The translations under genes were made by a program, and so were the position numbers. 64,000 nucleotides of DNA from Flaccisagitta enflata (lineage: Eukaryota): assembly GCA_965153355.1 (NCBI GenBank), contig OZ231126.1, positions 2,046,001 to 2,110,000 on the forward strand. Direction: 5' to 3'. Position 1 is the first letter of the stretch, and each line of letters starts with the position of its first letter. This document shows, piece by piece, positions 1 to 53,076 of the stretch. Below the pieces are notes generated by a model. That model made no database searches. It was not told the origin of the DNA and worked only from the letters and a program-made list of their open reading frames with translations.

Positions 1-42
1 CTCAATTCCACTTTTGCTTTTCTCGCTTATTTAACCTTGATT

Positions 43-2487
43 CCCGCGAAGCGGAGAAAAACATACGATGTGATTCTGATTTCCGAATGATGCTAGATTT
101 TTTTTCCTTTCACTCATTGCCTATTTAATTACTATTATTGAATGATACCCGATCCCGCGCAGCGGAGAAAATTGGCATATGGCAAAAAATGATAATAGTG
201 ATGAATGAAATAGCCATGAATTAAAACCCGCACAGCGGAGAAAAATTGAAAAATAATCAGAATTTTAATTTTTATTCTTTTTTTTGTTTCTCGAATAAAA
301 ATAAGATAGATTCATTCAATCTAACCAGTGATGTGACTCAAATATTCATTAAAATCAAACAAATGAAATAGCCTAACAAAATGAATTATGCATATCATAA
401 ATGCCAAATCCATAATTTTAGAATATTTTATTTTAATAACATTATTCAAGCTAAAATAAGACAAGATTTTGTATATCAAAAATCCTGCAAAATACTGCAT
501 ATTTAGCTGATGCCTACCCTTGTTTAAATGTCTAGACGGATGCCTAATTATTATTTCTGTTTTCATACCCGCTCGGCGGAGGTAGAATTATTGATTCTGT
601 TTTCATACCCGCTCGGCGGAGGTAGAATTATTGATTCTGTTTTCATACCCGCTCGGCGGAGGAAAATGCATTTTTGATTCTGTTTTCATACCCGCCCAGC
701 GGAGAAAAATGCATATTGTTTACTTCGGAAAATGTCGGATTAAGTTAGATATAACCTTTCCCACAAAGTGGAGGCATTAATAGGCACCTTACCCACAAGG
801 TGGAGGCATTAATAGGTACCCTTCCCACAAGGTGGAGAACTTAATAGTAACTATTCCCACAAGGTGGAGACATTAATATTTATTTAGCAACTGCCCATTA
901 TTGTACCCGCTATAGCGGAGGATTAAAACCATTAAAGCATGGGCGGATGCCCTAAACATTGCCCGCTAAGCGGAGGAAATTAGCTACTGGTAGCTTCGGC
1001 AGTATGCGCAAAAATTCCCCTAAGAAAGGGAGAGGTTCAATACCTTATGTTGACTAGGCTGAGGCCTAAGAATAGCCCGCTAGGCGGAGATAAAATACAT
1101 ATCCTTAGCTTCGGCAGAATGCGCAAATTTTTTGCTATGCTATAAAAAAAAAAAAAAAAAAAAAACTTTGCAACAATGTTAGGATCAATTAAAAATAATA
1201 GCGCATTATTAAAAATGATATGCATAATTCATCTTACCATAAACAGTATCATAAATTCTGAATAATATTACATAAACCCGTTGAACGGAGAAAACATAAT
1301 TGTGAGATTCAATTTCCTTTCTTAAGCCAAGAGCACCCAAGCTCACTCATGATTGAAGTTTTTTATTTTTAAAGAAAATCCTTAGTCATCAGAAGATACA
1401 GAAATGAAATCATAGAATAGCTACCAGCAAAATATCATTAAATTGTAATCAATACTAAAATCCCCGTAACGGATAAATGATTAATTATGAAAAATATTCA
1501 ATACTGGGCTAACTAATGGTTATTCAGTATGAATTGACTAAATCCCGCGAAGCGGAGAGTAAATGTTATGCCCATTACTATCTTTGACAGTATAGGAAAT
1601 TATTTTAATAACTCAAAATAACCATTAGTTGGCAGCTAGTAGAAAATTTTTTAAATGCTCAAACCCCAACAGGGAAGATATTGATACCCGCTAAGCGGAG
1701 GTAAAATCCATGATACACGTAGCATAAATTTAATATCAACACCCGCAAAGCGGAGAAATAATTTATGAGCATGAATCATGATTTTGATACTAATACCCGC
1801 GAAGCGGAGAAATATTCATGATGCATGAAACATGATACTTAATATTGATACCCGCGAAGCGGAGAGAAGATCATGATGCACGTAGCATAATACTTGATAC
1901 TGAAACCCGCAGAGCGGAGAGAAAAGAAATTAGTAATGCATAAAATGATACTTAATGCTAATACCCGCAAGCGGAGATAAATTCATGATACTTAATACTG
2001 AAACCCGTGAAGCGGGGAAGAAAATTCTAAAATGATTTTTTTTTATCTAAATAATTATACTGCAACTATTTAAAGAATTGCATGACATGATGCTTTATAC
2101 TAAATCCCAAAGATGGGAAGAAAAGCATGAAATTCTTTTATCCTTGGTATAAATTGCCTAAACCCGCGCAGCGGAGAATGAGATCAAAAATTTTTTTTAC
2201 TTTTGCTCATATGAATGATATTGAAACCCGCAAAGCGGAGAAACAAAAATTTTTTGATATTGAATCCCACGGAGCGGGGAAGAAAATCATGATGCACTAT
2301 GATTTTAATGATCATTGATGTTAAAAAATTGTCCCCGCGTAGCGGATGAAGAAAATCATGATGCACTATGATTCTAATGATCATTGATGTTAAAAAGTTG
2401 TTCCCGCGTAGCGGATGAAAAATGTCATGATGCAATATGATTTTAATGATGATTAATGTTTTAAAATGTTCCCCGCATAGCGGATGA
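43..2487 (+). repeat. Dispersed array of about 30 co-oriented mini-hairpin motifs (consensus CCCGC-N3-GCGGAG) in AT-rich, partly repeated spacers; may continue left of the window
   Basis: Copies read at about 43, 154, 227, 568, 608, 648, 691, 760, 792, 824, 856, 906, 962, 1076, 1277, 1462, 1544, 1687, 1742, 1796, 1851, 1906, 1964, 2004, 2106, 2163, 2227, 2266, 2333, 2403 and 2471. Local tandem blocks of 40 nt (568-690), 32 nt (760-870), ~55 nt (1687-2020) and ~69 nt (2266-2487). Confidence 0.93.
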
Positions 2488-2838
2488 AATAAATCAAAAA
2501 CCTATTTGTTAGCTTCGGCAGAATGCGCAAATTTTTTTTGATATGAGCAAAAACTTGAAGAATAGATCATGATTGACAAAGATTTTTTTTTAGAAAAATG
2601 TTAAGATAATACATGGCATCACGGAAATCAGAATTACATGAAATCACCCTCATAAAAGTCACTTTTTTTTCATTCATGATATGATAGTAATTGAGTTGAA
2701 CGCACCCGAAATATACATGAAAATAAGGAAACCGGATATGAGAAAGAAAATGCATTTAATAACATGATCATAACAAAAACAAATGAAACTTCCGCTACAT
2801 CGAGTTGTACAAAAATGTTTTGCTTTAAGTCGAGATGA

Positions 2839-3315
2839 GTGATTAAACTGTTTTGTTATTGTTTATGCACTATGTTTTGTTTACTCACAGAACAAATAAT
2901 TAAAGTGGCTGAATCTGTTGACACTACATCGATTGCTAGGCAAGCCGAGCAATTGGTAGAAAAAACCAAAGACGAACTTTTGCTAGAGTATAAGAGGCAA
3001 TTGTCTCAAAGTCAATTGAGAAATACGATCCATCAGTGCATAAATAGCAATTTGAGCGACAAAATCGAACTGATAAGAATCGAAAATCGTCATCTTAAGA
3101 CATTGAACAAAAATCTTCGCGAATTAGCCATCTCGAGTGAAGCAGCATTACAAAACAATACTCTTGACACTAGAATTAAAATACTGCGTGAATTAGTGAG
3201 AAATTGGCGTGAAAGCGTAACAACTTTGGAGGCGGCAAACACCGCTAACGACGCTCTTCGGCAACGGGCGGAAATCGAGGCGCTTGAATATCGACAAAGG
3301 CTTGAGGATATTTGA
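2839..3315 (+). CDS. Short predicted coiled-coil ORF (up to 158 aa; first ATG at 2872) directly upstream of the giant ORF
   Basis: Open frame with heptad-like E/L/R/Q-rich sequence (IELIRIENRHLKTLNKNLRELA; ANDALRQRAEIEALEYRQRLE). Its TGA (3313-3315) lies 2 nt before the next ATG (3318). Confidence 0.55.
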   Translation: MIKLFCYCLCTMFCLLTEQIIKVAESVDTTSIARQAEQLVEKTKDELLLEYKRQLSQSQLRNTIHQCINSNLSDKIELIRIENRHLKTLNKNLRELAISSEAALQNNTLDTRIKILRELVRNWRESVTTLEAANTANDALRQRAEIEALEYRQRLEDI

Positions 3316-3317
3316 GG

Positions 3318-6300
3318 ATGGAAAGGGACGGTATTAGAGGCGTGAGCTTGGAGTGTGGTGCTTGTGATGTCGTTGGCAGCCCGTTGGAGTCTGAATGGAG
3401 GTTGTTTTTGAATTGCCCTCATAGTGTGCACAAAGAATGTGCGGAAGGATGTGAGGGAGTCTGTCCCAAATGCGGATCCGCGTCGCCGTTCAGAATTGTC
3501 AATAGGGAGATTGTCACGTCCATCGAATTGGATAAGAGATTAAAGAAGGCGCTGAACAAGCACGAGACGAAAAAGAAGCATCTGATGGCGACGTTGGACC
3601 GTTCGGCGGGGGCATGGAGAAGTTTGGATCGCGTGATGAAATATCGCGTAGTGCAAGCGAGAGAGAAGCGGAAGTGGAGAATTAAGCAGAGGCTGCACAA
3701 CGAAAAGAAAGGGCGTAGATTGAATGACGCCGATGACGACGCCGAATCCGTCGGCACTTCCGGCGACGCCGAGGAATCCGCCGATAACGCCGCCGACGCC
3801 GCCAAATTAGGTGGCGAGAGTCGATCGGTGGAAGGCGAGGAAACGGGGGAGGAGAGAGACAAGCCATATCGAGGCGCGGAGACGCCGGATTCATCGGTCA
3901 TTCCTCCAATACCTGAGGAAGTGAGAAGAGAAGAGAAAGAAAGGCGTGACAAGGAAGAAATGGATAAAGCCTGGAAAGCGGTCAAAGAGGACATAATCAG
4001 AGGTTTGGGTGAAGATTTTGAAGGCGAGCCTGAAAAGGCAGCAGAGCTGTGTCTGTCCAACTTATTATTGGACGTCATTCAGTCGCATGAAATGCAGGAT
4101 GATTTGGCTCGCCAATGCGTTGGTTACCTAGACAACGTCACGGAGAATCAGGCGTTAGTGATGGAGTCGTTGTCCAAGACTCAACCGACGTTGTACAACG
4201 ACCTCATGGAGGCTCTTCCGGATGCTGAGGAAGACTTGAATGAGGCAGCGAGAATCATTTCTGAAATGAACAAGGAAAGAAATTATCAAAGGCACGCTCT
4301 TGAGCAACTTACAAAGTTCCAATCGACGCTGGAAATACGTCAAAGGGAGCAAAAAGAAGAAGATGAGGGCGTCGACAGGTCACCAAAGCCCCTTCAAGCC
4401 GTCCAAGAGACGATAGAACTGGGCAAAGAATTTGGGATCCATATCCAGACGATAAGGTCTGACGCCGCCGATCGCGTAGCCCTAGAAATGGAAAGAAGAG
4501 GAAGGGATTTGCCGGTTAATGCGTCAATCGTTGACATAATGACCATGTGTGACCTAAACAGAGAGATTCCTCCTCAGGGCAGAAGAGTTGACGTCTTCAA
4601 ATTCGACCGGGAAAAGCCCCCAAATTCCATCCCTGAATTGGTGAAGGAGGTGGAAGAATTAAAAAGGCAAAGAAACAGTTTTGCCTTGATGCTCAAAATG
4701 ACAGCCATTAGGCTTGAAATTTCAGAAAGGGGGATAAGAAACAGAGATAACACGCATGCAAAAATGGTTAGATTCCAAGAAGTGCGTCAAGAGCAGAACG
4801 AAGAAGTGCACATGGCCTTTGAAGTATTTATTTCCATGCTTCTTTCCGAGCTTTGCCGTGAAAGATTGATCCGGCAAGAGGCCCTCAAGATTTTGGAGGA
4901 GGTTCCCGAAAGAGCATCAGCCATGGTGGCCATGTTCAGGATGGACGGTCCACAAGATGACATGGGTGAAAAGAAAAAGATGACAATTCATCGAGATTCC
5001 ATGGCCTGTGACATCGATTTGGTGTCAAGAAAGTTGGCGACGGGGTTACCGCCTGAAGAAAAAGAAGAGAGGCTGGCGCAAATCAAAGATGGCATGACCC
5101 AGAAAATGAATCTGGTTTGGGCTGAGCCTCAGCCGGTGGACAAAAGATGGACCAAAGGTATGGCAGAAGCTCTATGGGAAGAGATGACCAATCCCGTACC
5201 GCAACTGGAATCCCTCGAAAGGAAAGAGGAGGAAGACAAAGGACCTTTGCCGCCAATAGTGCCGCTGTCCGATGAGAGGAGACAAGAGGCCCTGAACTTA
5301 GCAATCGCGGAAAGTGGAGGACCAAGATTGGGCCCTCATGATTCATACAAACCGCTTAGTCAGACAGAAAGAAGAGCGTTCATCAACGATCCATGGGTGC
5401 AAAAGATGAACAACGACTTCATGATGTGGAGCAACATCAATCTGCTCAAAATCCCAATTGATTACGAGGGGGTTAGAAAGGAGTGGGAGGATGCAGATTT
5501 GGAGACGGAGGAGGAAAAGGAAGAGAAGAAGAAGAATAAGAAAGGAAAGGAAGGAAAAAAGCAAAAGAGCAAGAAGGCCAAAGAAGGAGAAATGCTAACA
5601 ACAAAAGAAGAGTTGGAAGAAATGAAGAAGAGGGGAGGAGAAGACCAAGAAAAGACGGGTAAGGCGGGAATGATGGTCCAATGGACAAATCCCGACGGCT
5701 CATTGGAATTGCAATATTTCCCGCCCGAAGAAATTCCACGTCTGATAGAGGCCGAAAGAAGAGTAAATCAAAGAAAGGAGATTGAAAGGGAAATGAACGC
5801 CTTCTTTGGAGTCAAGAATTCTGACAGCGAAGATAGCAGTGAAGAAGATGAAAAATCCAAACCGCAAAGTTCACCGCCATCAAAAGCATCGCCCAGAGGC
5901 GCGAGTGGTAGTTCACCGAAGGCGATGTCTCTCCACACCCATTCAAGACAGCCAACACCGGGCAGAGGCCGTCCAGGTGCGTCTAGTTCCCCGTCAAACA
6001 TGGGAAAGACGTTCAGAGGCCCGAGGGAATTGACGTGCTGGCATTGTGGGATCAAAGGTCACCACATAAATGATTGCCCCACGATCAAGTGTTGGCGGTG
6101 CGGTGAAACAGGTCATCATCAAAAGGTCTGCCAGGCCCCGAAAACGACGAAGGAAATCTGGGATGGGGCCGACAAAGATGGCAAGAAAGAGAAGAAGGAT
6201 GACGACCAAGACAAGAAGAAAGATGGAAGTGGGCCGTCAATCTGTGCGGTAGAAATGGTGGAAATGGAAGGTCCTTCAGAAAATGAAGAGGAAGAAGAGA

Positions 6301-9300
6301 AGGAGCAGTTGGCTATGTTGGAGGAGGTTGAGTCCGACGACGATTGGATTAACCATCCACCTGGTCTTGCTTATCCCAGCTCTGAATCAGAAACCGAGAA
6401 TGATCTGATTGACAACAAGTCGATTGTGTTGGAAGAAGAGATGCAACAGAAGCTGAGCAAAAATCAGAAAAGAAAGCTCAGAGTGAAGAGGAAAAAAGAG
6501 TACAAAAAATCGCTTAGAGCAGCCTCTGATGGCACAAACACAATTGCAGCCCAGTCAGAGGAGCCAATTGCAGAAGCAAGCCCTGAAGGAGCAGAAGGTC
6601 ATTCAAAAGCTCCACCAACTCTTCCGTCAGAAGCACCGGCGACAAACAGCCAAGGGGCAACCTCAGACACATTGATCATGTCTGAGCGACAAAAGAAAGA
6701 TGAGCAAATCAAAGAAATGATAGCCATTGAGCCTAAAGGAGGAGATATGGTTTTTAAAGTAGTTGACAAGATGCTACTCAACCGTCTCTTCGAAAGCGTG
6801 CTGGAGGAGAATGTAAAGGAAATGGTGCTCAGCTTCCAGGGCCAATTCTTTCGTCAAGGCTACGAGTCCACCTCCAATGAGGGCATATTTGTCCCAGAAG
6901 CACAGATGACAATCCAGGAAGCCCTTGGATATCATTTTTTGATCTGGCATTGCGAAGATTGGATCGTTCAGAAATATGGGGAAAAACCCAAGTTGCGAAC
7001 TGAAGCAGAAATGCAAGACATCAATGCAAAGAAGATTTCTGCAATATGCAGAATGCTTCACTATGCACGAAGGTGCGCGAAATTGATGAAAATCAAAGGT
7101 GACATCAAATCAAACGAATCTCATGCAATCACCATGTGTGCTGTTAACGCCGGCAGTGATGATGAAATGGAGCACGAGGCATCTAAAGGACAAGAGGTGA
7201 TTGTCGATTCAGAAGAGGAGAGTGAAGTACCGGTGATCAAAGTCCTCGGGGGCGACGATGATGAAACCGACGCACCTCCGCGCATCATTGACGCTAGACC
7301 TCTGGATTGTCACAAAGTGTGCCAGGCTTACACATCAGCTCATGACAGTCTGATACCCGAGATAGCCGACAAAATGGAGCAAGGACCGCCCGATGACGAT
7401 TTGCAATTTGGGGATACAATCCAAAGTGAATATTTGAACAAAGGCGAAAGTAACCTTGGGGACAAAAAAAATGGCGGATTTTTGAAACCTTTCTTTTGAA
7501 CCATAACGCGATACAACGTAAGAAAAATGGATTAAACTTGGTGATGCCTGTAAAGCCCTTCAAAACATCTTTCATTTGAGTCGTGTCTGGTATCTGTAGC
7601 TTTATCCGATTAGAAATGGCATAGGTTTGAAGAAAAATATCACCAATTGGAAAAAGGGCAAATATTGTCTTTTTTTTCGATTAGCAATTTTTGTCTCAAC
7701 GTTTTTCTTAATAATGCAATTCAGAATTGCCACAGCTACTTGATATCCGTGAGCAAATTAAAGAGCTTTGAATTTTCTTCAAAATGGCGCCAAGAACGAA
7801 TTTGTTACTCAATGCGTTTAGTTTCTATGTTTCAACAAACAAAAACATGCAAATCCTAAAGTGAATTCTCAAATTCCAGACAACCTGTTTTCATCCCAAT
7901 GCCATTTCTAAACGAAAAAAGCTAGGACAAGCAGCAACGTCTCATTTGAAAGATCTTTCGCAGAGCTTCAAAATGGTCACCAATTTTTTATAGTTTTTCG
8001 CAATTTAAGATAGATAGAATTAGTTTTCCAAAATCCGCCATTTTTTATGTCCCCAAGGTTATCGAAATTGTATCCAGGTCTCAAACAGTCATCATTCTCT
8101 CGAGAGAACAAGGTCAGGGCAAAGTAGGCATGATCTCGTATGACAGCATGCAGCATCAAGACATGGTGAAGAATGGTGGCTGGTTGCACGACGAGAGTGA
8201 AATGGAAGAGCTAGAAAAGCAGATCTTATCGGGTGAGAAATCAGGATCAATCATGAAATTGCACAAAAGAATCGAAGGGACGGACAAAGTGGCCCTCGTC
8301 AAAGCTTTATGGTCACCAGGCAAAACAATCATACGACCAAGAAATCCGTCACCCGGGCTATCGCCTGTCGAATTCATCCATTACCTGCGCTGCCAAGGCA
8401 ATCAAGACGCGATTGTGGGGCAGGAAATCTCAGCGGCGTTCACACAGATTGATGGCAAAACCGTTGTTGAGCTTTCGGCGGCGAAAAGAAAACGTTCGCC
8501 ATCTCCATTCGAGAAAAACAAGAGGAAGGACAGCGACGTCAACATCGTGGGCGCCATCACCATCGACGACGATATCACCAGCGGTGACAACGACGAGAAT
8601 TTCATCCCAAACGTCCGCCTGGAAGAAGTTGAAGGGGATGAAGAGGAGGAGGAAAGGCGAGAAGAGGTGAATGAAGAGGCAATCGATCAAGTTGCGGAGC
8701 AGCAACCAGGCGCATCTGCAGCATCAAACACTTCATCTGCGGAGGAAACCCAAAACCAAACTCCGGCAGATGAAGGTCCCTCAGCAACGCCACTCACGGC
8801 AGAATCATTGGAAGTGGTGCGACCAAAGGCGTTGACAAAAAGCCAAGAAGAATTATTGGCAGAAATGGCAGTAATGGCGGGTAAATTGGAGAAAAAGAAC
8901 AAAGAAGTGGCCTGCCTCGTCAACAAGGTTAAAAAGCTTAAATGGGAGCTCAATCTTCGTTCACCCGTGGACAGATGGAAGGTGTTGAAGGGCAAATGGC
9001 CAAGAACCCCTTCGATGGAAATGAAAGCGGAAATTGTCGGAGTCCCCTTGCACATCTTGGAGCAAAACGAATTGCTGATGGAGTTGAATCAGTCGGAGGT
9101 GGCAGGAAGGGCGATGATATCCGGCGAAATCCGTCAAGCTGGCGAGACGATAACGGAAGCGGTAAATCGTCTCGGTCCAATGGGACTGAAAAATAGGAGA
9201 AAAGAATTACAAGCCAGCTCGGATTTGGAATGGAAAAAGTTAGTCCCCAAAACCTACGACGAGATCAAGGAAGAGGTTTTGGAGGCCGCGCGTGCGGAAG

Positions 9301-9497
9301 AGCAGCATTATCACTTCCGCGCGGAACGCATCGCAACACGCGCGAGAGAAAGATACCAGCCCGCGGAATGGTATTTTGGTCCTTCCTTCGGCGAGCTCTT
9401 GGAGCAGGAAGCCGAAAATAGAAGGCGAATCAACGCGGCGCGACAAGGTTCTTTCCAAGCGAATGTCACGCAATTGGACGACGACAAAAGTGGCTAA
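3318..9497 (+). CDS. Giant Gag-like/unknown protein (~1,856 aa after removing the MITE at 7453-8061): N-terminal RING-H2, coiled coils, acidic/basic tracts, two CCHC zinc knuckles; interrupted in this copy
   Basis: ORFs 3312-7499 and 8130-9497 share a frame. Deleting the MITE plus one TA gives ...NKGES|IEIVSRSQTVIILSREQGQGKVG-MISYD... with no stop. RING-H2 pattern C-x2-C-x16-C-x-H-x2-H-x2-C-x7-C-x2-C at ~3354-3473. CX2CX4HX4C twice (CWHCGIKGHHINDC, CWRCGETGHHQKVC) at ~6036-6131. Confidence 0.85.
7453..8059. mobile_element. Non-autonomous foldback MITE with TA target duplication (Tc1/mariner-type by TSD)
   Basis: Termini ACCTTGGGGACAAAAAAAATGGCGGATTTT / AAAATCCGCCATTTTTTATGTCCCCAAGGT, imperfect inverted similarity for roughly 200 bp inward, TA at 7451-7452 and 8060-8061. 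Confidence 0.92.
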
Positions 9498-10106
9498 AGA
9501 GACAATCTAAACAAATACGGACAATCCATGGAAATTGTCCGAATTGCAAATGTTTTGGAAAAACAAAATACCGTTGCTTTGATATTGTACGAGGTTGATG
9601 TTAGAAAAATAATCAAATTACGTGAACTGGTTTATGCGAGATGGAATTGAAAACGCGTATAAAACGTTCTACTTTTGCATGTTTGAAAATTCTGCAAGGC
9701 CAAGTAAAACCCGCATTGCTTTAAATCATGCTTAAAAATATCATGTTACTCTCGCATTAAATATTGAATTGCCAAAAGCAACCCATTGCATAATTTTTCT
9801 CGCCCGTGTAAGATACTATGATGGTCTAGTATTTGACGTCATATTCTATTGCCAGTGTTCTAAGAATTGCCATAAAATTGCCACTTCGCATTATTGATCA
9901 CTTAAACATTTTCATATTTTCTCTCAACTCAAATTCATGTTACATGTTCTTTTATATCAAAACAGGTTTCAGGAGAAAAAAATTGATAAGAAGAAAAGCT
10001 TCTTTTGCAAGCTCTTGGTTTGAACTCTTAAATAACAATTCGGAACATTCTAATCGAACATTTCGGAAGAAACATATTGAACATTTTCGATCAATAACCT
10101 GCGAGA

Positions 10107-11720
10107 ATGAGCGACGAAAGCGCCGGGAGGGGCGGTCAAAATGATCCGCCGAACTCTAGCGACGACGTCAACACGGCGACGAATTTCATGGCGCCATCGA
10201 TTGGCGCGATGATGCCGCTTCTACCGGGCGAAACAACTGCGCGCGCCAGGAGACGATCCGGCGCGTTGCACGTCGCGGAAACGATGATAAATATGTTTCC
10301 GCAGCCTCGGCGATCGCCGAGACACTCAAATGCGCCAAACCATCAAAATCAATCTGGCGTGAATTTAAACATTGGACAACAACCATCAGCAATGACGGAA
10401 GAAAATGTAAACATGGACTTGGCGTCTACAGATGTTTTCCAATCGGCAATGTCATCAGCTTCAACATCTCAAACGACAAATCCATCATCAATTCCACCAG
10501 AAACAGTTCAAACATCATCAATTCCATCAGCTGGAATAACATCATCAATTCCATCAGCTGGAATAACATCATCAATTCCATCAGCTGGAATTCCATCAGC
10601 AATTCCATCGACTGGAATTTTGTCGACTTTTCCATCAACACATAATCAAACGACAATATCATCAACGGGACATCAATCTGCAATACAATCAACAGAATTA
10701 TCCACGTCTCTTTCATCACATCATCAAAACGTGAATCCGTCAAACCGATCAAATGAAAACACTCACTGGTCTGAACTCACACCATCAATTCCATTCTCGA
10801 CTACGACTACGCCAATGAGCGGAATTCCATTGGCGATTCCATCATCATCTTCAAATCATGAATCGGCACCAATATCACAGAATGTCATGGACTTGACAAA
10901 AGCGCATGTTAATCCATCATCATCCGCGGCAGAATTTAACATGCCGTCATCATCAACAGTATCGATGATTACAACGCTGGGTACTCAAGGAATGGTCGGC
11001 AACGAGCTTGTCAGCAGCTGCCAAAGGAAATTGGCTTTAAATCAGGCCTTGATTAACACAAGCAATAGAAACAACGAAATTCAGTCGTCACCTTTGAGTA
11101 GTGAGGATGAAATGGAAACTTCGACGAGTGCATCGATAACGAGAAACAGATGTATTGATGGGGGTGAGGTCAGAGAAGGCTTGAATAAATTGCATATCGA
11201 CGAAGAATCGAATGACAGCCCGCTGGAAGATGAAAATGTAACAGCGGTTAAAAATCTGCTCGACTCAGAAAAAAGAAACGACGCATATGACCCAGAAAGG
11301 CCAGGCATGTCGTCAGAAGACGGCAGGGTCAGCGCAACAACACATCCCGTCCCAATTACCAATACCAGACGGAGTATGCTTGAAGACCGTCTCTCGGTCA
11401 TATACCCTGAGATAGGGGTGCCGCCGGGTACACAAAACGATGATAGTGCCATGACGGGTCAATTGATCGCTTATTATGAGGAAAATAAAAGGGACATAAA
11501 GAGATATCAAATTCCCTCATTCCCAAACCCAATTGACGCTCTGGTTGAAACCTTCACTACTCATCGTGAACACTACTCAGACGTGATTCAACGTCCTACC
11601 AACAAGAAAAATCGAGAATATTTGAAAAAAGTTCTGGTCGAGCCAGAATTGTTACCTGGCATGGAATCAAGAGCACTCAAGGCTGGAAAAAAGCAGGGCA
11701 CTGTCGGACCAATACTTTAG
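10107..11720 (+). CDS. Ser/Thr/Pro-rich, probably disordered ORF (537 aa as annotated); the last 7 codons come from an inserted transposon, so it is truncated
   Basis: Long intronless ATG-initiated frame with a 27-nt tandem repeat (SSIPSAGIT, ~10514-10620). A CACTGT transposon end starts at 11699 inside the frame. Confidence 0.75.
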   Translation: MSDESAGRGGQNDPPNSSDDVNTATNFMAPSIGAMMPLLPGETTARARRRSGALHVAETMINMFPQPRRSPRHSNAPNHQNQSGVNLNIGQQPSAMTEENVNMDLASTDVFQSAMSSASTSQTTNPSSIPPETVQTSSIPSAGITSSIPSAGITSSIPSAGIPSAIPSTGILSTFPSTHNQTTISSTGHQSAIQSTELSTSLSSHHQNVNPSNRSNENTHWSELTPSIPFSTTTTPMSGIPLAIPSSSSNHESAPISQNVMDLTKAHVNPSSSAAEFNMPSSSTVSMITTLGTQGMVGNELVSSCQRKLALNQALINTSNRNNEIQSSPLSSEDEMETSTSASITRNRCIDGGEVREGLNKLHIDEESNDSPLEDENVTAVKNLLDSEKRNDAYDPERPGMSSEDGRVSATTHPVPITNTRRSMLEDRLSVIYPEIGVPPGTQNDDSAMTGQLIAYYEENKRDIKRYQIPSFPNPIDALVETFTTHREHYSDVIQRPTNKKNREYLKKVLVEPELLPGMESRALKAGKKQGTVGPIL

Positions 11721-11837
11721 GCGCTATGAATTCTTTAATCTTTTTTTATTTTTCACATTTTCCGTATTTTTTCCTAAGATCATTATTTTTTATCAATCTC
11801 AATTTTGGGCCCTACATAACAACAAAAATGAGTTCAG

Positions 11838-12506
11838 CAGAGGGCAGAGGGAGGGAGGGAGAGGGACGGAAGGAGAGGGAGGGAGAGAGAGGGAAGGAGA
11901 GGGAGGGAAGGAGAGGGAGGGAGTGATAGGGAGAGTGGGAGAAGGAGTAAGGTAGGGTGGGAGAGGAAGGGAGAGGGGGAAGGGGGAGGGAGGGACAGGG
12001 AGGGAAGGAGGGAGAGGGAGAGTAGGAGGGAAAGGGGGAGGGGGAGGAAAAGGGAAGGAAAGAGAGAGGGGGAGGGAGGGACAGAGAGAGAGAGAGAGAG
12101 GGAGGGTGAGGGGGAGGGAAAAGAAGGGAGAGAGGGAGGGAGGGGTAGGGGGAGGGAGAGATTGAGGGAGGGAGAGAAGGAGAGAAAGCGGGAGGGAGAG
12201 GGTGAGGGGGAGGGAAAGGGATGGAGTGAGAAAGGGAGGGAGGGAGAGGGAGGGAGGGAAAGGGAGGTAGAGGGGGAGGGGGATGGAGAGTGAGAGGGGG
12301 AGGGAGAGTGAGAGGGGGAGAGAGAGTGAGAGGGGGGTGGTGAGGGAAAGGGAGGGAGCAAGGGAGAGAGGGAGAGGGGCAGGGAGTGAGGGAGGGAGAG
12401 AGGGAGAGAGGGAGAGAGGGAGGGAGAGAGGGAGGGAGAGAGGGAGGGGGAGGGAAGGAGAGAGGGAGGGAGCATGGGAGGGAGACAAAGAGAGAGAGGG
12501 TGAGAG
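11838..12506 (+). repeat. Low-complexity G/A-rich (GGGA-type) tract followed by short (CA)n
   Basis: Nearly pure purine strand with dozens of GGG runs; the overlapping Pro/Leu/Ser or Glu/Arg/Gly ORFs are by-products. Confidence 0.95.
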
Positions 12507-17509: not shown

Positions 17510-20500
17510 CTACATTCGAATACAACCAAACAAGGAGCAAATCGATTCAGGACATAAGTCAAAGCTTTTTCAAGTGGTTTCTAAGAAAGCAAAGATTATC
17601 GAGACTTTTGTCAAAGAGAGAAGCTCTCACTTTCGAAACAAACAGTCCGGCCGCACTAAAGGCTCTTTCTTCCTCAACAGAAGTCGGAGGAAGAGTTGAC
17701 GCTGCTTTTTAAACTCTTTCGAAACACAGAGGTCGTTGACCAGTTGCTAAAAAAAATGGCAAATTCATGTTTGATTTTGACAAGAATATCCGACGGAGAT
17801 GAAAATGATGATTTGTTTTGGTCAGCACCCAAATCACGACTCTGGAGGAAATCTCTCAACTCTTCAGCTTTCGATTTTTTTGGAGCCGGCTCAGTTGGTT
17901 CATCAGAGTCAGGCAAAGCGCTATCCTCGTTGGATCCTTGAGACCAAAAGAGACGAACATAAATGTCTCTGATTTTTTTGATAATCTCACTCTTGGGCAG
18001 ATATTTCAAGATGGCATTATCTGCATCCTTGTTGGGTGAAAGATAGAGAAGCACACCCGAGATAAGCCCGTTGCGTCGCTCCATGAGGTGTTGGTGAAGA
18101 ATGTCTAGCATTGCTTGTCCTAAGCCCGACTCATTCTCCTCCAGCTTTTTCAGCATGAACTCAATGACATGATCAGCATCAAGTAGCGAGTAATCGTTTG
18201 AGGCGATTTGAGTAGCACCAATCTCGATTGTTTCAAGCACATCAATCAAGTCTCCTACAATTTTGAGCTCGTCCTCGCTCAGAAAAAGATGTTGCAACGC
18301 AAGGTTGATTAGCGCTTTTTGAATTTCCGGTGAGAGTAAGTGAAAGCGGCGAAACATGGCGAGCAACATATGCCATCGAGTCTTTGTGTCCATGATCAGA
18401 TTCAACTCCTGTCCATGAGTAGGGGGTCATGGTTGGAAAAGGGGTCATTAAACCATCAATTGGACAAAGTTTGTTTGATAATCTAACTTTCCTGACTTCA
18501 TCAGCACTCATTTTGAAGGGCTAATTGCTGAAATGTCCAAATCCTGTTCATTTGTTCATAGACCAAGGTCATGATTGAAAAACGCGCCCTCTGAGAGAAA
18601 GGCGTCACATCCACTGGTTAAAAGTCACTTGTTTTGAAGCCTCTGTGGCTAGATGTCAAGTGTTCCAGTTTTTTTTCTCCCCAATTTGACACTTCCCTTA
18701 CAGGTTAAGGTTGAAAATCTCTTTGATGATAAATTTCTCCTCACAACCACTGCAAGCTTTGCCCAAACCTCCCCAAATTCAATGTTTTTAGTTGTAGCGT
18801 GGATCTGGCAGATATAGAGCTGGGATTTGGACATATGTGCTTTATCAAGTTTTATAGCATGATAATTTCTTAGTAGGGATGTCAATCACAATCAGGAACT
18901 GGTCATATATGGACTTTTCAATCTTCTATGAAAATTTAAGTCACTTCAAGACCCCCTAAATACTTATCCTTAAATTGACCTTACAGCTTTAAAATGGAGC
19001 TTCCAGGCTCAAATTTGAAGGTTAGCTAGGGGGTCATGGTTGGAGAAGGGGTCATTAAACCATCAATTGGACAAAGTTTGTTTGATAATCTAACTTTCCT
19101 GACTTCATCAGCACTCATTTTGAAGGGCTAATTGCTGAAATGTCCAAATCCTGTTCATTTGTTCATAGACCAAGGTCATGATTGAAAAACGCGCCCTCTG
19201 AGAGAAAGGCGTCACATCCACTGGTTAAAAGTCACTTGTTTTGAAGCCTCTGTGGCTAGATGTCAAGTGTTCCAGTTTTTTTTCTCCCCAATTTGACACT
19301 TCCCTTACAGGTTAAGGTTGAAAATCTCTCTTTGATGATAAATTTCTCCTCACAACCACTGCAAGCTTTGCCCAAACCTCCCCAAATTCAATGTTTTTAG
19401 TTGTAGCGTGGATCTGGCAGATATAGAGCTGGGATTTGGACATATGTGCTTTATCAAGTTTTATAGCATGATAATTTCTTAGTAGGGATGTCAATCACAA
19501 TCAGGAACTGGTCATATATGGACTTTTCAATCTTCTATGAAAATTTAAGTCACTTCAAGACCCCCTAAATACTTATCCTTAAATTGACCTTACAGCTTTA
19601 AAATGGAGCTTCCAGGCTCAAATTTGAAGGTTAGCTAGGGGGTCATGGTTGGAAAAGGGGTCATTAAACCATCAATTGGACAAAGTTTGTTTGATAATCT
19701 AACTTTCCTGACTTCATCAGCACTCATTTTGAAGGGCTAATTGCTGAAATGTCCAAATCCTGTTCATTTGTTCATAGACCAAGGTCATGATTGAAAAACG
19801 CGCCCTCTGAGAGAAAGGCGTCACATCCACTGGTTAAAAGTCACTTGTTTTGAAGCCTCTGTGGCTAGATGTCAAGTGTTCCAGTTTTTTTTCTCCCCAA
19901 TTTGACACTTCCCTTACAGGTTAAGGTTGAAAATCTCTCTTTGATGATAAATTTCTCCTCACAACCACTGCAAGCTTTGCCCAAACCTCCCCAAATTCAA
20001 TGTTTTTAGTTGTAGCGTGGATCTGGCAGATATAGAGCTGGGATTTGGACATATGTGCTTTATCAAGTTTTATAGCATGATAATTTCTTAGTAGGGATGT
20101 CAATCACAATCAGGAACTGGTCATATATGGACTTTTCAATCTTCTATGAAAATTTAAGTCACTTCAAGACCCCCTACCATGAGTTTCTTTCACATTTTTC
20201 TGTAGCGTGTCATTTGGAACGGGACTTTGGCGAAAAGCTTTGGAACCAGTCCGGACCTTTTTGACAACTGGTTGAAATCGCCGTTTGAGAACTGGTGGCG
20301 TTTCCGTCTCCATCTCACTTTCGTCATCATCCTCATCTGAACCGTCCTCAGAGTCACTGGGCGGATTTTCCTGTGAGGAAGTGTCGTAGAGAAGATCGCA
20401 AACGGCGAGATGTGCTCCATGTGAAAGACAAAGTTGTTGTTCAACTTCTAGCAGGCGACCAACTTTTTTCATGACTGCAGCACCGTCAGTCACAACGCAA

Positions 20501-21030
20501 AAGATGTGTCGCTTCCTGTCAAGTCCGAAAAGTGCGAGTCTTTCATCAAGAAGTTCCACGGCTTTTTCAGCTGGAAGAGAACCTGTGACACAAACCATTC
20601 CAAGCGACAACATGATTCTCATCATGTAGGTTGATGCTCATGAAGAGTCGATTCTTTATGGAGGTGTACTCATCGAGCGACACACTGAATCTTTCTCCGT
20701 TTTCAGCTCTCTGTGCAAGTTCTTTTTTAAGATCTTCCTTGACAGAGGCCGCGTGATGGAACACAATGTTTTTCACGCCATTCCCGCTTTCAGGCACTTT
20801 GTATCCTCTCGCTTTGAGACCAGCTACAATGTTTTTGCTTTTTGCGATTGTTTTGTAAGGAAGTCTGTTGACAGCACAAAGACGAGAAAGGATCAAACTT
20901 AAATCTTCTTTTTTCGGTTGAAAATGCGAAGATATGGTTGGCTGAGTTGCGGTCACAGTCGATGGCTTTTTTTGCTCGATTTCCACGGAAATTGAATGAG
21001 CTTTATCTAGATGATAACGCAAGGAGCTCG
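17510..21030 (-). pseudogene. hAT transposase pseudogene (frameshifts, internal insertion, 5' end lost)
   Basis: In order: BED-finger tail TSSLRYHLDKAH, FSVSLDEYTS, VVTDGAAVM, CLSHGAHL (CxxH), DTKTRW, and hand-translated C-terminal PPTSVEEERAFSAAG...LDNLCFL dimerisation motif. Confidence 0.93.
18420..20176. mobile_element. Three head-to-tail ~540-bp TAGGGGGTC...GACCCCCTA units joined by an identical ~68-bp linker, bounded by one 7-bp TSD
   Basis: Units start at 18420, 19027 and 19636 and are nearly identical. CCATGAG at 18413-18419 and 20177-20183; removal restores the transposase frame VKETHGQELNLIMDTKTRW. Confidence 0.9.
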
Positions 21031-21031
21031 T

Positions 21032-21640
21032 GAATTGTCCAAGCAATTGGAGGCTGTACAATCCAAGGCGACAGCACTAGTCATGGGACTCAAGAAGCTG
21101 AACTCGGAAGAAAGGCGGAAGAAGCTTGGACTGATGACGTTGGAACAAAGGAGGGAAAGGGGTGATCTGATCGAGGTATTTAAGATCCTCCATGGCCTGA
21201 CAAGGATAGACCCCGGGCACTTCTGGGAAGTCAGAAATGCAAGGGGGGTCCAAGATTGGTCAAGGCATTGGCGGAGAATGGACGGAAGCAGAGGCAATCC
21301 TTCTTCTCGTATAGAGTTATTCAAAAATGGAATCTCTTGGGAGCGGAACTTAAAACTGCGCCCTCCCTGGAAAGCTTCAAGAGACGGTTGGATGAGAGGC
21401 TGCTTGGCAGCAATTAGCTGACGGATGGGTGAATCAAAAGTGGTAGAAATTGCATCCTGGGAAGTGAGAGGCCGCTAGGTCTGGCCCTCACAGAACAGGT
21501 GGAAGTGGGTGACTTGTAAATAGGTAACCTTGGAATAGTGAGAGAGCCGCTTTGGCCCTCACAAAAATGATTGCTGGTGCTATCCTGGTGGCACCTCCTA
21601 CCCTTGTCGTTGATGGATGTTGGTGATTTTCATCGGCCGT
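21032..21640 (+). mobile_element. 3' fragment of a CR1-clade LINE (ORF2 C-terminus plus probable 3' UTR); boundaries approximate
   Basis: LEAVQSKATALVMGLKKLNSEERRKKLGLMTLEQRRERGDLIEVFKILHG and, after a frameshift, FFSYRVIQKWNLL: the typical CR1 post-RT motifs. Confidence 0.85.
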
Positions 21641-48634: not shown

Positions 48635-51357
48635 CTACATCACCTGCGCCTTCTCCATTACAGAGACGCGCGGGATCATTCCGGGAAGCTCCAACACCTC
48701 ACAATCCGTGGGCGAAAGGCGATAAATGATGTCGCCAACGGCATCAGCATCGAAAGGCGCAGGTGGTGCAGCCGTCTGAGAATGCATCCTCCTTGACGCG
48801 AAGCATAAGAAAGAGAGAACCGGGGCAGATTGATTAGCAAAGTTCTTATCGGTACACAGATTCAAATTTACAACAAAAACTCAACCTCAACCCTTCCTAA
48901 ACCATGAAACTTACGCGGGCGTTTTTCGCCAGGCCCCGGGGCGGACGTCATTCCCACGCCCCGGGTAGCGCCCCCGACTTGGCCGGCCTGTCCATCGATG
49001 GGATGAGGATGTGAAGGTGGAATACGATCCTCAGCGAATGGCGGCGCTCTCCACGCCATGTTGCAAATTGGTAGTTAAATTGAACAGCAACTGGGCGTGG
49101 CACCAATCAGCGTTTAGCTGGCGGTCTGATTTTTCCAAGGCCTGGTTCGATTTTTCTTATTCCCAGGCTTGGGAGCGTCTTTTTGCGACAGGATCTGCTG
49201 ACCGACTTTTTCTGCTGGAGAAGACGCAGGAGGTGGAGATGCTGCATCGCAATTCGGCGCCAGTCGAAATTTCGGACGTACAGCGGACGCAGTTTTAAAG
49301 TCGACGGCCATAGCCGCCTTTGCGCGTTCCACCGCTTCCTCTTTCTTCTTAGCCTTCATCGCACAGGCCTGCTTCTCCTTTTCAAGCTGCTTCTCCAGTT
49401 CCACGACTCGCTTATTGCCTTTGACCACCTCATTGTCCGCAGCCATTGCTGCTCGACGAGCATCGTCTCTCTCCTTTTGGATATTGCGACGAATCCTCTC
49501 GTCTAAGACTTGACGAGCCGCTTCAACTCGTTGACGCGGCGGAAGCGACGCGAAGAAGTCTTTTGGAAGCCTTGATGCTAAATTCTTCACCACCCCCAAT
49601 GGAGCATTTGAGGTCAGTAAAGAGGCTTCTCGTAGCAATGACTCGGCGATGTGGTGTCCATGCGCAGGATCAAAGGCTGGATCCGACGGGGGAGGCGGGT
49701 TCTGCACTTGCTGCAGACCTTGGGCAGACTCGGTTTGCTGACGAGGCGCTACACCAGCTTTAACAGATGCTGAAGCACCGCCAACTAGTTCGCTTCCTAC
49801 CGCTGCTTTTGATGGCTGCGAGTGAAAGGAAGACGCTCCCGTCTGCTGACCAGAGACTTGAGGTTTAACAGCGGACGCCCGAAGCACCGCAAGAGAACCT
49901 CCTTGGTTGCTGCTTTGTGCTTCTTCCTAGCTCTCTTGGTCTTCTTCCCCTTTGCTGCCGCTGCCCCAGGCGCCTGATCCAGCTTCTGGGTTGCTGCCAA
50001 CGTTGCCGTCGACGAACCGCTTGAAGCTTCTCCTTGGCCTTTGGGCGTTACTGCTGCAGGGGGCGCGCCTGGAGGCGCTTTGAAGGGGCCTTTGCTTTTG
50101 GAATTTGGCCCTTTTGTTGACCTCGGCACATTGCGCGTTTGTGGAGTCTTTCCCCGACGTGATCTCTTCGACTGTTGTGAGGGAGTGACGTCACGAGGAC
50201 CCTGTTGCTGCTGATTTGGGGGATGAACCAATCCAGGGCGCGATTGACGACTTCCTGATGCTGTAGAGTGAATTGCCGCTGATGTAGCTGCGGCTGCGTC
50301 GAGCACGAATACCGCTGGTGGAGTTGCGGAAGCGCCGACGGAAGTTGCACCAGGAGGCTTCGGAGCCGCATTCTTCCTCTTCGTCGCTTGGACCATGCGA
50401 CGAACCTCCTTATCATGCTCCCTCCTTCTCTTATTGCTTTGGATTTTGCGCTCCAGAGTCTCCGAGCCAAGCTCTGTTTGATTAGCCGATGAGTGCATGA
50501 GAGTTTGTTTGTTGCAGCATACCGAAAGTTTTTCAAACTCTTTGAAGAGGAGAGATACTCCGACGTCCGGACTGATGATACGATACCACCAACGCGCCTG
50601 CATCCGTTGGTGCTTCTCTTCCGGCGTCGCAGTGTCCACTTCCGGGTCAATGTCTTTCTCCACCGCCTCCCCATTCACCAACACCTCCTCCTCTGTTTCC
50701 ATCCCCTCCTCCTCCACTCTTGCTCCATCATTGACCGATCTCTCTCTCTCTTCGCCCCCGCTGCGTTGACGTGCAGCTGCAGACGCTTGATCGCGAGACG
50801 CTGGGCGACCGAAATCAAGGCAAAATTGGCGAGGCGATGGGGGCAAATCCGATGATGATGACGCTCGCCCGCGGAAGTGTGGATAAGTCCGTCGGGCGGC
50901 CGACTGACGAGATCCGCCGAACCTCCATCTCTGATGACCACCAATGGAGGAAGCGACGCGGGGTCAACGTGGTGCTGATGGCTGTTGATTTTATTTACCA
51001 ACGATCATCTGTTGACGCTTTATTCGCCATTTTTGCGCTTTCACGACGGAACGTATGTCGCCATTGAAGGCTGCCAACGCGACAGCCTCCTCCCCCGCCC
51101 CGAACGACGCTTCGTGATGCAGATCCTCTCGAGCCGGCCCGTTGAAGAGTCGATGAAGATCCAGCGATCCGTACGACGCCGACACGCCGGTTTCTGCCTC
51201 GAGACGCTGCTGACGGGACATCTTGACTTCGACGAGCGAATTTCAAGATGCTAACTGACTTCGTAGATGGAATGACGTCGTCAGCGGAAGCTTTGAAATG
51301 TTCGTAATCGAGAACTGATAATGGTAAGAACGGATTTTGGCACAATAATATGTACAT
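48635..51357 (-). pseudogene. Extra sense-strand ORF region (~2.7 kb, several frameshifts) between integrase and 3' LTR; unknown basic/coiled-coil protein
   Basis: Consecutive overlapping ORFs (50995-51357, 50991-51221, 50675-51001, 49797-50846, 49114-49887, 48635-48865). The same peptides recur in the right copy (e.g. HQRMQARWWYRIISPDVGVSLLFKEFE; LDERIRRNIQKERDD). Confidence 0.7.
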
Positions 51358-51573
51358 ATAGACAGAGCGAATGAATCAGTGTTTTGTGATGTGTGAGTGG
51401 AAATGGACAACATAATTAACAAGAGGAAAGATGAAAGCATGGATAATCAGAACCAAATATGAATAATAACAACTCTTTGTAAATATAACAAGTCAGAGAT
51501 ATCAATCACTCATATCTAGTTACTAATGGACAGGCCCATGCGCCTTTTTCTCTCTCTCAAAACTTAGCGTTTT

Positions 51574-53066
51574 TTATGAGTCCAATTGCCGCACAAGCCT
51601 GCGGCGGTCTTTCGTCACGATCTTTCCATCTTGGCGCCGGATGTGAGCCCTCCGGACATGGGCTGATGATCCCTCGACGCCCATGACACGTCCTAAGCTC
51701 CAATTGTGACGAGGTAGCGTTTCGTCCATGACGATGACCATGTCATCGACCGCAAAGTCTCTCTCAGATCTCGACCATTTACTTCGCGCATGAAGAAGCG
51801 ACAAATATTCGACCCTCCACGATTTCCAAAATGCATCCACACGGTGATTGCACGCCTCCATTGAATTCATGAGTCAAGTCGACCAGAATTGACGCCTTGT
51901 TGCACCAGATCCAGAGGGGCATGGCCGGATGTTGATGGATTGAGGATATGATTCGGCAAGGGCCTCAGAGTCATTTGGATCATCGCGGAGCGCTGTTAGA
52001 GGACGGCGATTGAGAATTCCTTCAACTTCACGACTTGCAGTGTTGAAGGCGCCGATGCGGGAGGATGGCGCCAGCTGAGATGGGGAGGCAAGATGGCGCT
52101 TAAAGAGAGCGACGATTCTCTCCCACACCCCTCCATAGTGGGGTGTTCTCGGCGTGATAAAATCCCACCGAAGGCCGCGCCGCTGCAATTCGGGAGTTGA
52201 CGAGCGGTTCCAAGCTTCCATTTCCTTCTTGAGGATGTTGTTGGCGCTGACTAGATTCGTTCCACAATCTGATGTGAAACGGCGGATTCCTGGGCGCCTT
52301 GCTGCAAAGCGGATGATTGTATTTACTATCGGATCGGCTGACATGTTGAAGAGCAAGTCCACATGGACGGTGCGTGACACGAAACAGGTGAACACTGCGA
52401 TCCACCCCTTGTGATCAGCACGCCTGGCTCATTTTTACCATATGAAATGCCCCCGACGCCCAATCCAGTCTCTGCAAAGACAGGCTACCGGATTGACGCG
52501 GTTTGATGGAAGATTGGCCATTTGCTGATTTGCGTTCTTTTTAAAGTTCTTCTGGCATCTAAAGCACGTGTTGACGACGCTCTTGACGGCCTGAAGACCT
52601 TTGTAATCCACACAAATTGGCGTAATTGGCACAATGTATGCTTTGCACCCGCTTGAAAATCATTATGATGATAATGGCGAATTAATGATTTCACATTCTC
52701 GTCTTTTGGCGGACAGGACGCAGGGAAATTTAGCGTCATGAGAGATGTCGGCATTCTCCAATCGACTGCCGACGCGAGGGATGCCGTCGTCGTCGACGAA
52801 AGGGTTCAGCTTCCGCATCTCCTTGTTCTTTATGATAAAGTCACGACGGCTTTCCGGCTTGAAGACTTTTCCCAATTCCAATTGTTCAAAGACGTCAGAA
52901 TAATGCTGCCGCTGCATTGACTTGACGAGCTGTTTGCGCGCCTCCACTTCCACGTCTTGCGTCACTTCCGGTTTGGGAAGGAGATCCTTTTGTTGCTCGT
53001 GGCTCGCCTTCTTGGATACGCTTCTCCACCTTTTGACTGCGATGAGAACTATGCCGAGCATCCGGC
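51574..53066 (-). pseudogene. Bel/Pao Pol C-terminus: integrase and DUF5641-type tail, frameshifted
   Basis: LNPFVDDDGIPRVGSRL, QQMANLPSNRV, FTCFVSRTVHVDL, SDCGTN, PHYGGVWER, EGILNRRPL, FWKSWRVEYL...SKW, WSLGRV. Confidence 0.93.
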
Positions 53067-53076
53067 NNNNNNNNNN
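53067..53076. other. Assembly gap (10 N)
   Basis: nnnnnnnnnn in the sequence; indel density looks higher on both sides. Confidence 1.

Follow-up and report, generated by a model that had tools for sequence, protein, structure and literature searches.

We analyzed a 64-kb window (64,000 nt, the whole stretch examined) from the Flaccisagitta enflata assembly GCA_965153355.1, contig OZ231126.1, positions 2,046,001 to 2,110,000 of the forward strand. An initial annotation, made from the letters alone, had placed a candidate undescribed giant mobile or virus-like element at its left end. In window coordinates, an array of short hairpin motifs (43–2485) is followed by open reading frame (ORF) 1 (2872–3315), by ORF2 (in two parts, 3318–7451 and 8061–9497), by a spacer of 609 nt with 33% GC, and by ORF3 (10107–11720, 537 aa). 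The array and all the long ORFs between 2.8 and 11.7 kb lie on the plus strand. In these respects the initial annotation was accurate, having listed a plus-strand hairpin array, a coiled-coil ORF, a RING/CCHC ORF, an AT-rich spacer of ~600 nt, and a third ORF of more than 530 aa. The parts did not assemble into a single 11.7-kb element. What stood was a narrower entity, an intronless and polymerase-less ORF1–ORF2 pair whose members abut, whose first ORF is free of internal ATGs, and which recurs in public contigs.

ORF1 encodes a protein of 147 aa, predicted by AlphaFold to be all-helical, with helices at residues 2–15, 18–94, and 98–146 and a mean predicted local distance difference test (pLDDT) score of 79, in keeping with the coiled coil noticed earlier. 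Its stop codon occupies 3313–3315, and the ATG of ORF2 follows 2 nt later at 3318. The 443 nt separating the two start codons contain no ATG in any frame. In mononucleotide shuffles of this interval the mean was 8.3 ATGs and never zero (0 of 2000), and codon shuffles contained a mean of 4.3 (P = 0.0065). The 446-nt ATG-free gap over ORF1 is the fifth largest on the plus strand of the window; by our reading of composition and ORF listings, the four larger gaps are low-complexity repeats. The start contexts are A-3/T+4 for ORF1 and A-3/G+4 for ORF2, which the criteria in the consulted excerpt of PMC5902531 grade as moderate and favourable, respectively.

The flanks carry candidate transcription signals. 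The motif CATAAAAG at 2651–2658 (+) is the sole TATA-like motif in 2500–2875 and may be the core promoter of the ORF1–ORF2 unit, while ATTAAA at 9756–9761 (+) is the sole AATAAA/ATTAAA in the 9495–10110 spacer and may act as the poly(A) signal. With a start ~30 nt past CATAAAAG, cleavage 10–30 nt past ATTAAA, and the insertion described below subtracted, simple arithmetic predicts an mRNA of 6473–6503 nt. A start of ORF1 at a splice acceptor near 2889 was also considered and ruled out. From 2815 onward, relative P0028 runs colinear with the window, so that contig does not use the acceptor-like CAG near 2889 for splicing. Past the ORF2 stop, at a distance of 22 nt, stands a perfect inverted repeat of 7 bp, GGACAAT-N8-ATTGTCC (9519–9540, +).

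The window copy of ORF2 is split at 7451/8061. Its relatives align to 3318–7451 and 8061–9494 in the same frame, the 5' part corresponding to residues 1–1377/1379 of the relatives and the 3' part to the last 479 residues. The intervening sequence, 7453–8059, is a non-coding miniature inverted-repeat transposable element (MITE) of 607 bp and not an intron. It has 23-bp terminal inverted repeats with one mismatch and imperfect inverted arms of ~180 bp, and it is flanked by a duplicated TA (7451–7452 and 8060–8061). The empty site in relatives reads ES|IE, and the window frame, running into the insertion, stops at 7497–7499, so this copy of ORF2 is broken. Elsewhere in the two halves, no other defect was seen in the alignment to relatives, which makes the insertion look recent. 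An intron or introner at 7452–8060 was rejected, as no GT-AG or AT-AC pair removes the insertion in frame; the empty site is restored by three removals, which begin with TA, AA, or AC, and the sole nearby GT...AG leaves one extra base. The TA duplication, the 23-bp inverted ends, the 607-bp length, and the lack of an ORF are shared with TA-targeting MITEs of the Stowaway / Tc1-mariner type. It differs from such MITEs in that no other copy of it occurs inside the 64-kb window. The RING/CCHC ORF of ~1,860 aa in the initial annotation was therefore right in its domains, and in its length for public contigs (1,856–1,857 aa); an uninterrupted ORF2 is found only there, and continuity within the window is the part of that description that failed.

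The 5' part of ORF2 begins with a RING-H2 domain at residues 13–52, followed by a long charged region, two CCHC knuckles at ~908–939, and a conserved domain at ~1130–1260. Divergent relatives share both domains of the 3' part, one of beta-alpha-beta-beta-alpha type and a helical one at the C-terminus. The eight-ligand RING-H2 pattern C-x2-C...C-x-H-x2-H-x2-C...C-x2-C is intact in all four full-length relatives, and the two C-x2-C-x4-H-x4-C knuckles, spaced 4 residues apart, are kept in 9 of 9 long relatives. When the four ORFs were searched against Pfam at E ≤ 1, only weak matches to zf-C3H2C3 and zf-CCHC were obtained, and no reverse transcriptase (RT), RNase H, protease, integrase, transposase, Rep, or movement protein appeared, in line with the absence of replicative enzymes noted at the outset. 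Pfam yielded nothing usable for the ORF2 relatives or for ORF1. Against solved structures, the knuckle pair matched HIV-1 Gag/nucleocapsid (NC) best, if weakly (E 3.5e-4). A capsid domain, which the initial annotation had suggested looking for, was not recognised. The AlphaFold model of the C-terminal 714 aa, itself poor (pLDDT 43), gave 0 Foldseek matches against the PDB at E ≤ 0.001. The protein atlas placed ORF2 nearest to clusters of RING proteins with a Nucleocytoviricota label, but the score, 0.75, falls short of the usable level.

Relatives of ORF1, ORF2, and ORF3 were sought among 5.8 billion proteins. The ORF2 search returned one cluster of 16 members, all from ENA, all unnamed, and 96–98% identical to the window. 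Four of them are full-length, on contigs of 9845, 6475, 7946, and 6479 nt. The ORF1 search returned five clusters: a main one of 29 members with 97–99% identity among those aligned, three with a single member at ~90%, and a shorter fifth covering half of ORF1 at 99%. The 15 main-cluster members listed include contigs of 9845, 6479, 6475, and 7946 nt, the very sizes of the full-length ORF2 contigs, indicating that the pair appears to share a contig in all four full-length cases. One identical ORF1 sequence was recorded on 44 contigs. Three of the 10 contigs with a long ORF2 measure ~6.5 kb (6475, 6479, and 6514 nt). Across the 10 ORF2 sequences, variable columns were unevenly distributed, from 0 to 18 per 100. 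Judged from these alignments, the identical ORF1 on 44 contigs, the uneven ORF2 variation, and the intact RING and knuckles fit constraint at the protein level. Among P0017–P0020 there is a second ORF1 lineage with ~90% identity that starts 11 residues later; P0019 has a differing sequence upstream of residue ~40, and P0020, found on two contigs, diverges completely after ...ESVTTL, suggesting another insertion or rearrangement in some copies.

For more distant relatives, the 1,184-aa member P0012 was used as a HMMER query against 1.84 billion representatives. Among the 56 matches, we took seven (P0035, P0036, P0038, P0039, P0042, P0060, and P0083) as true relatives; the remainder mostly match the knuckle region alone. 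P0035 (493 aa) showed 42% identity with an E value of 9e-92. The divergent relatives, at 24–56% identity, again all come from ENA and are all unnamed, and one member of the clusters to which the seven belong, P0100, is a complete protein of 787 aa. The helical C-terminal domain is common to 10 of the 11 aligned relatives, and all ten end directly after a glycine; the eleventh, P0036, spans only the N-terminal part of this domain and ends elsewhere. The longer divergent relatives also share the beta-alpha-beta-beta-alpha domain and the domain upstream of it. Neither RING nor knuckles were found in the five checked (P0035, P0038, P0095, P0100, and P0101). No relative of ORF2 was found in JGI metagenome contigs or in IMG/VR, and none of ORF1 in IMG/VR. 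A published description of the gene pair or of the array was likewise not found, supplements aside.

The hairpin array on the plus strand upstream consists of short GC-clamped motifs with the consensus ATAC-CCGC-NNN-GCGG-AG-AAA. It reaches the start of the window, and 43–2485 covers only the part inside. A pattern scan of the 64 kb found the strict motif CCCG-N3-6-CGG[AG] 25 times on the plus strand within the array, whereas over the remaining 61 kb that strand had 3 loose matches; on the minus strand, two matches were found in the whole window, one of them within the array. With a looser definition (CC, two paired bases, a loop, and GG), 31 hairpins were counted in 1–2600, or 11.9 per kb versus 0.9 per kb in the remaining window, and seven on the minus strand of the array. 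Repeat units of at least four unrelated kinds carry the motif, their periods being 40, 32, 55, and 69 bp; it also occurs in dispersed copies, and the consensus core is all that the differing units have in common.

When 25 units having 3-nt loops were aligned, pairing held in 97.5% of cells. Double changes occurred at two stem pairs, GC to AU in four units and CG to UA in one, and kept the stem as CCAC/GTGG and CCGT/ACGG. The covariation score was reached by 0 of 500 shuffles, a count biased by our having chosen units that were complementary. The test is further weakened by the four CCAC/GTGG units being tandem copies of one event and by the presence of degenerate units, for example near 2266. 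The heptamer GCGNAGC, called an extraordinarily stable DNA mini-hairpin in the consulted part of PMC13037366, is contained in 8 of the 25 units. This is the likeness of the array to mini-hairpin DNA of the type GCGNAGC / GCGNNAGC; the difference is that the remaining 17 units have other loops. No oriented genomic array of such units was found in the published literature, and a literature search for CCGCGAAGCGG gave only integron, cloning, and unrelated papers. Folding of 1680–2000 gave z = -3.3 on the plus strand and -2.2 on the minus strand, without discrimination between strands. A search for the two-hairpin DNA pattern retrieved at least 120 loci in metagenome contigs and 4 in viral contigs. 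The 124 loci retrieved had a GC content of 0.41–0.75 (0.51–0.75 for the 25 richest in motif copies), and these are presumed to be unrelated prokaryote-type repeats.

Rfam 15 gave 0 matches at gathering score in the 64 kb. At E ≤ 1 in 1–3000, only two C/D-box-like matches were obtained, sR9 (20.2 bits) and snoR13 (25.5 bits), both with E ~0.8, and these weak snoRNA-like matches fall on the 69-bp repeat units at 2354–2532 (+). In some 55-bp units, ATGATGC stands after and CTGA before successive hairpin halves, a placement that would also allow the GCGG...CCGC halves to pair across a unit. Three plus-strand copies of GCTTCGGCAG-N-ATGCGCAAA lie at 993–1012, 1108–1127, and 2512–2531, each 15–24 nt 3' of a hairpin; two of the three are followed by a T-run, and none would be expected by chance. 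We take the first 10 nt of these copies to equal the U6 snRNA 5' stem-loop and their tail to resemble U6 ACGCAAATT. Rfam returned no U6 match in the window, nor in 1–3000 at E ≤ 1.

ORF3 (10107–11720, +) encodes a Ser/Thr/Pro/Asn-rich protein of 537 aa and is too long to be a product of chance. It contains four copies of a 27-nt repeat (10511–10618), and its GC content at third codon positions is 0.40 versus 0.52–0.56 in ORF2. In the collection where ORF1 and ORF2 relatives are plentiful, no ORF3 relative of 295–940 aa was found; shorter or longer forms were not searched. No Pfam match at E ≤ 1 and no usable protein-atlas lead were obtained. ORF3 is thus treated as a separate downstream ORF, which nothing links to the ORF1–ORF2 unit, and its inclusion in one element, as first proposed, was not borne out. 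Nor did the ends or additional copies that such an element should have come to light. Between 2490–2880 and 9495–10110, shared repeats of 11 nt or longer, direct or inverted, were absent, so that no long terminal repeat (LTR) or terminal inverted repeat surrounds the unit, and neither a second copy of any part of ORF1–ORF2 nor a long repeat of the region is present in the 64 kb.

Elsewhere in the window, Pfam gave nothing at E ≤ 0.01 for nine other ORFs. A 650-bp purine microsatellite of GAGG/GGGA type (11847–12500) begins 126 nt past ORF3 and creates long spurious ORFs on both strands. Three adjacent ORF pieces of 250, 157, and 169 aa at 17677–21076 (-) look transposase-like by eye and had no Pfam match at E ≤ 0.01. 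Two inverted, near-identical coding stretches, 49117–50963 (-) and 54733–56334 (+), share the same peptide runs, for example ERSVNDGARVEEEGMETEEE, and flank a 3.7-kb centre with mirrored ORFs and a 10-N gap at 53067–53076; five ORFs of the 49117–56334 region gave no Pfam match at E ≤ 0.01.

Taken together, we give about an even chance (roughly 50%) to the reading that ORF1–ORF2 is a discrete, intron-free, bicistronic, polymerase-less unit, most probably a gene pair of viral or retroelement ancestry, now resident and functional in some lineage of planktonic marine animals. Its design is that of viruses and retroelements. The anatomy, the conservation of the pair, the AUG-free ORF1, the insertion, and the undescribed family of relatives were observed, whereas the single mRNA, leaky scanning, the protein activities, and the ancestry belong to the interpretation. 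On this explanation, the unit would measure ~6.5 kb (~7.1 kb here, including the insertion), and the hairpin array would be a separate, oriented repeat region just upstream. Both proteins would be made from one mRNA. Part of the scanning ribosomes would start at the ORF1 AUG, in its moderate context, while others would scan through the AUG-free ORF1 and start at the ORF2 AUG, in its optimal context, 2 nt past the ORF1 stop; termination–reinitiation would be an alternative route to ORF2. The ORF2 product may be a nucleic-acid-binding ubiquitin ligase or scaffold and the ORF1 product its helical partner, and the window copy would have been inactivated recently by the TA-flanked MITE. The ~6.5-kb contigs and the spacing between the TATA-like and ATTAAA motifs fit a full-length mRNA by arithmetic, and an expressed gene would account for the similar contig sizes, the signals for promoter and poly(A), and the constraint on the proteins.

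Several observations weigh against this reading. We infer the single ORF1–ORF2 mRNA, its ends, and its expression. Eight ATGs lie in 2685–2871, between the proposed start site (~2685) and the ORF1 ATG, which makes that start site less likely or points to additional control, and the purine at -3 of the ORF1 AUG means that leakiness may be modest. The domain scores are below the curated Pfam cut-offs (17.3 bits against 27 for zf-C3H2C3 and 17.2 bits against 20.8 for zf-CCHC), and the C-terminal model is poor, as given above. Three ORF2 contigs exceed 6.5 kb (7946, 8306, and 9845 nt), indicating that the unit was not always assembled with fixed ends. Moreover, internal ATG, GTG, or TTG codons serve as starts in 6 of the 10 long ORF2 relatives, and in five of these six cases the contig holds unexplained extra sequence. 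Along with the interrupted window copy, these features are as compatible with decaying multi-copy elements as with a host gene; the broken copy, the internal starts, and the absence of ORF3 from the collections also fit the decay of dispensable copies.

The layout was compared with those of known systems. Among APE (apurinic endonuclease)-type non-LTR retrotransposons, or long interspersed nuclear elements (LINEs), a short helical ORF1 precedes a long ORF2 on one transcript, according to the part of PMC3894237 consulted. The unit has this bicistronic layout, with nucleic-acid binding by its ORF1 and a shared transcript being putative. It differs from LINEs in having no endonuclease or RT in ORF2, in carrying the knuckles in ORF2 and not ORF1, and in showing no 3' tail. 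Ogre, Burro, and Terminons carry RT and LTR or pseudo-LTR (pLTR) ends. Their large size, extra ORFs, and, in some, coiled coils recall the locus, as far as the excerpts of PMC6431247, PMC8557442, and PMC5408684 go. In contrast to the LTR retrotransposons Ogre and Burro, the window unit is without long terminal direct repeats, protease, RT, RNase H, and integrase. The features of Penelope-like elements (PLEs) and Terminons, namely a PLE-type RT, telomeric repeats, and hammerhead motifs, are not seen either, there being no RT and no Rfam family at gathering score in the window. Two knuckles of the C-x2-C-x4-H-x4-C form are shared with the retroviral nucleocapsid, whose HIV-1 Gag/NC structures are the nearest solved ones, but those of the unit lie at ~908 of a 1,856-aa RING protein with no recognised capsid domain. 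The RING-H2 ligand pattern, kept in all four full-length relatives, is that of E3 ligases, although the zf-C3H2C3 score falls short of its cut-off; ligase activity is putative. Tungro- and badnaviruses (Caulimoviridae) share the AUG-free upstream ORF, the abutting stop and start, and the very long downstream CCHC ORF, and their polycistronic pregenomic RNA is translated by leaky scanning, as described in the consulted sections of PMC5902531. The unit departs from them in its RING-H2 N-terminus, its marine and presumably animal source, the lack of relatives of ORF1 or ORF2 in IMG/VR, and the lack of the polyprotein of movement protein, coat protein, protease, RT, and RNase H, only CCHC having been found.

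Other explanations were weighed against a resident, functional gene pair. We consider it unlikely, though to be taken seriously, that ORF1–ORF2 is a multi-copy non-autonomous mobile element with a LINE-like transcript lacking RT, copied in trans, of which the window holds one dead copy. The three nearly equal contigs (6475, 6479, and 6514 nt) point this way, but a full-length mRNA explains their sizes just as well. ORF3, 609 nt downstream, is absent from a collection rich in ORF1 and ORF2, as expected if the flanks varied from copy to copy; a MITE breaks the one copy open to inspection; and the six relatives with internal starts look as if they had been disrupted upstream. Public runs, labelled as marine plankton and with no RNA run among those listed, hold 0.52–0.63 of the sampled words of 2501–12000, of which ORF1 plus ORF2 make up 63%, a proportion that is compatible with such an element and says nothing beyond that. 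Against it stand the absence of sensibly placed terminal repeats of 10 nt or longer, of a poly(A) or microsatellite tail directly past the unit, and of a second copy or fragment in the 64 kb. A bolder version appears improbable. Here the pair would form a new class of gag-like selfish element, bicistronic and without a polymerase, or of endogenised virus, in marine zooplankton; the giant RING/knuckle protein would bind a multivalent array of GC-clamped mini-hairpins, situated on its own RNA or adjacent to it, for packaging or translational control, with replication supplied in trans.

An endogenous virus fragment, pararetrovirus-like or from a large DNA virus, that kept only structural genes is more doubtful again. 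The AUG-free small ORF before a ~1,900-aa CCHC ORF resembles the badnavirus/tungrovirus layout, and the atlas clusters labelled Nucleocytoviricota, below the usable level, would lean the same way; movement protein, protease, RT, and RNase H are lacking, as are IMG/VR relatives of either ORF and neighbouring viral genes. We hold least probable the giant element of at least 11.7 kb as first proposed, with ORF3 included and the transcribed hairpin array as a leader bound by the ORF2 knuckles. Its parts all lie on the plus strand, hairpin pairing is kept through the CCAC/GTGG and CCGT/ACGG double changes, and the 9845- and 8306-nt contigs, if colinear and without ORF3, must by arithmetic reach upstream into the array. 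However, the covariation count is biased by the choice of units, ORF3 has no relatives, and neither ends nor an enzyme was found. The idea of the array as an mRNA leader is unsupported: the array is rich in ATGs and so makes a poor scanning leader, the eight ATGs in 2685–2871 come in addition, and the only TATA-like motif of 2500–2875 stands 3' of the array, ahead of ORF1.

A long AUG-free first ORF in a leaky-scanning bicistronic unit is a viral hallmark, rarely met among animal nuclear genes. The unit described here is conserved and apparently widespread in marine samples, and its family is without a name or recognisable domains beyond the RING and the two knuckles. As a host gene, it would show a viral gene architecture kept after domestication; as a mobile one, it would be a retroelement-like unit without an enzyme of its own. 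The oriented mini-hairpin array beside the unit is a candidate RNA or single-stranded-DNA ligand for the knuckle protein.

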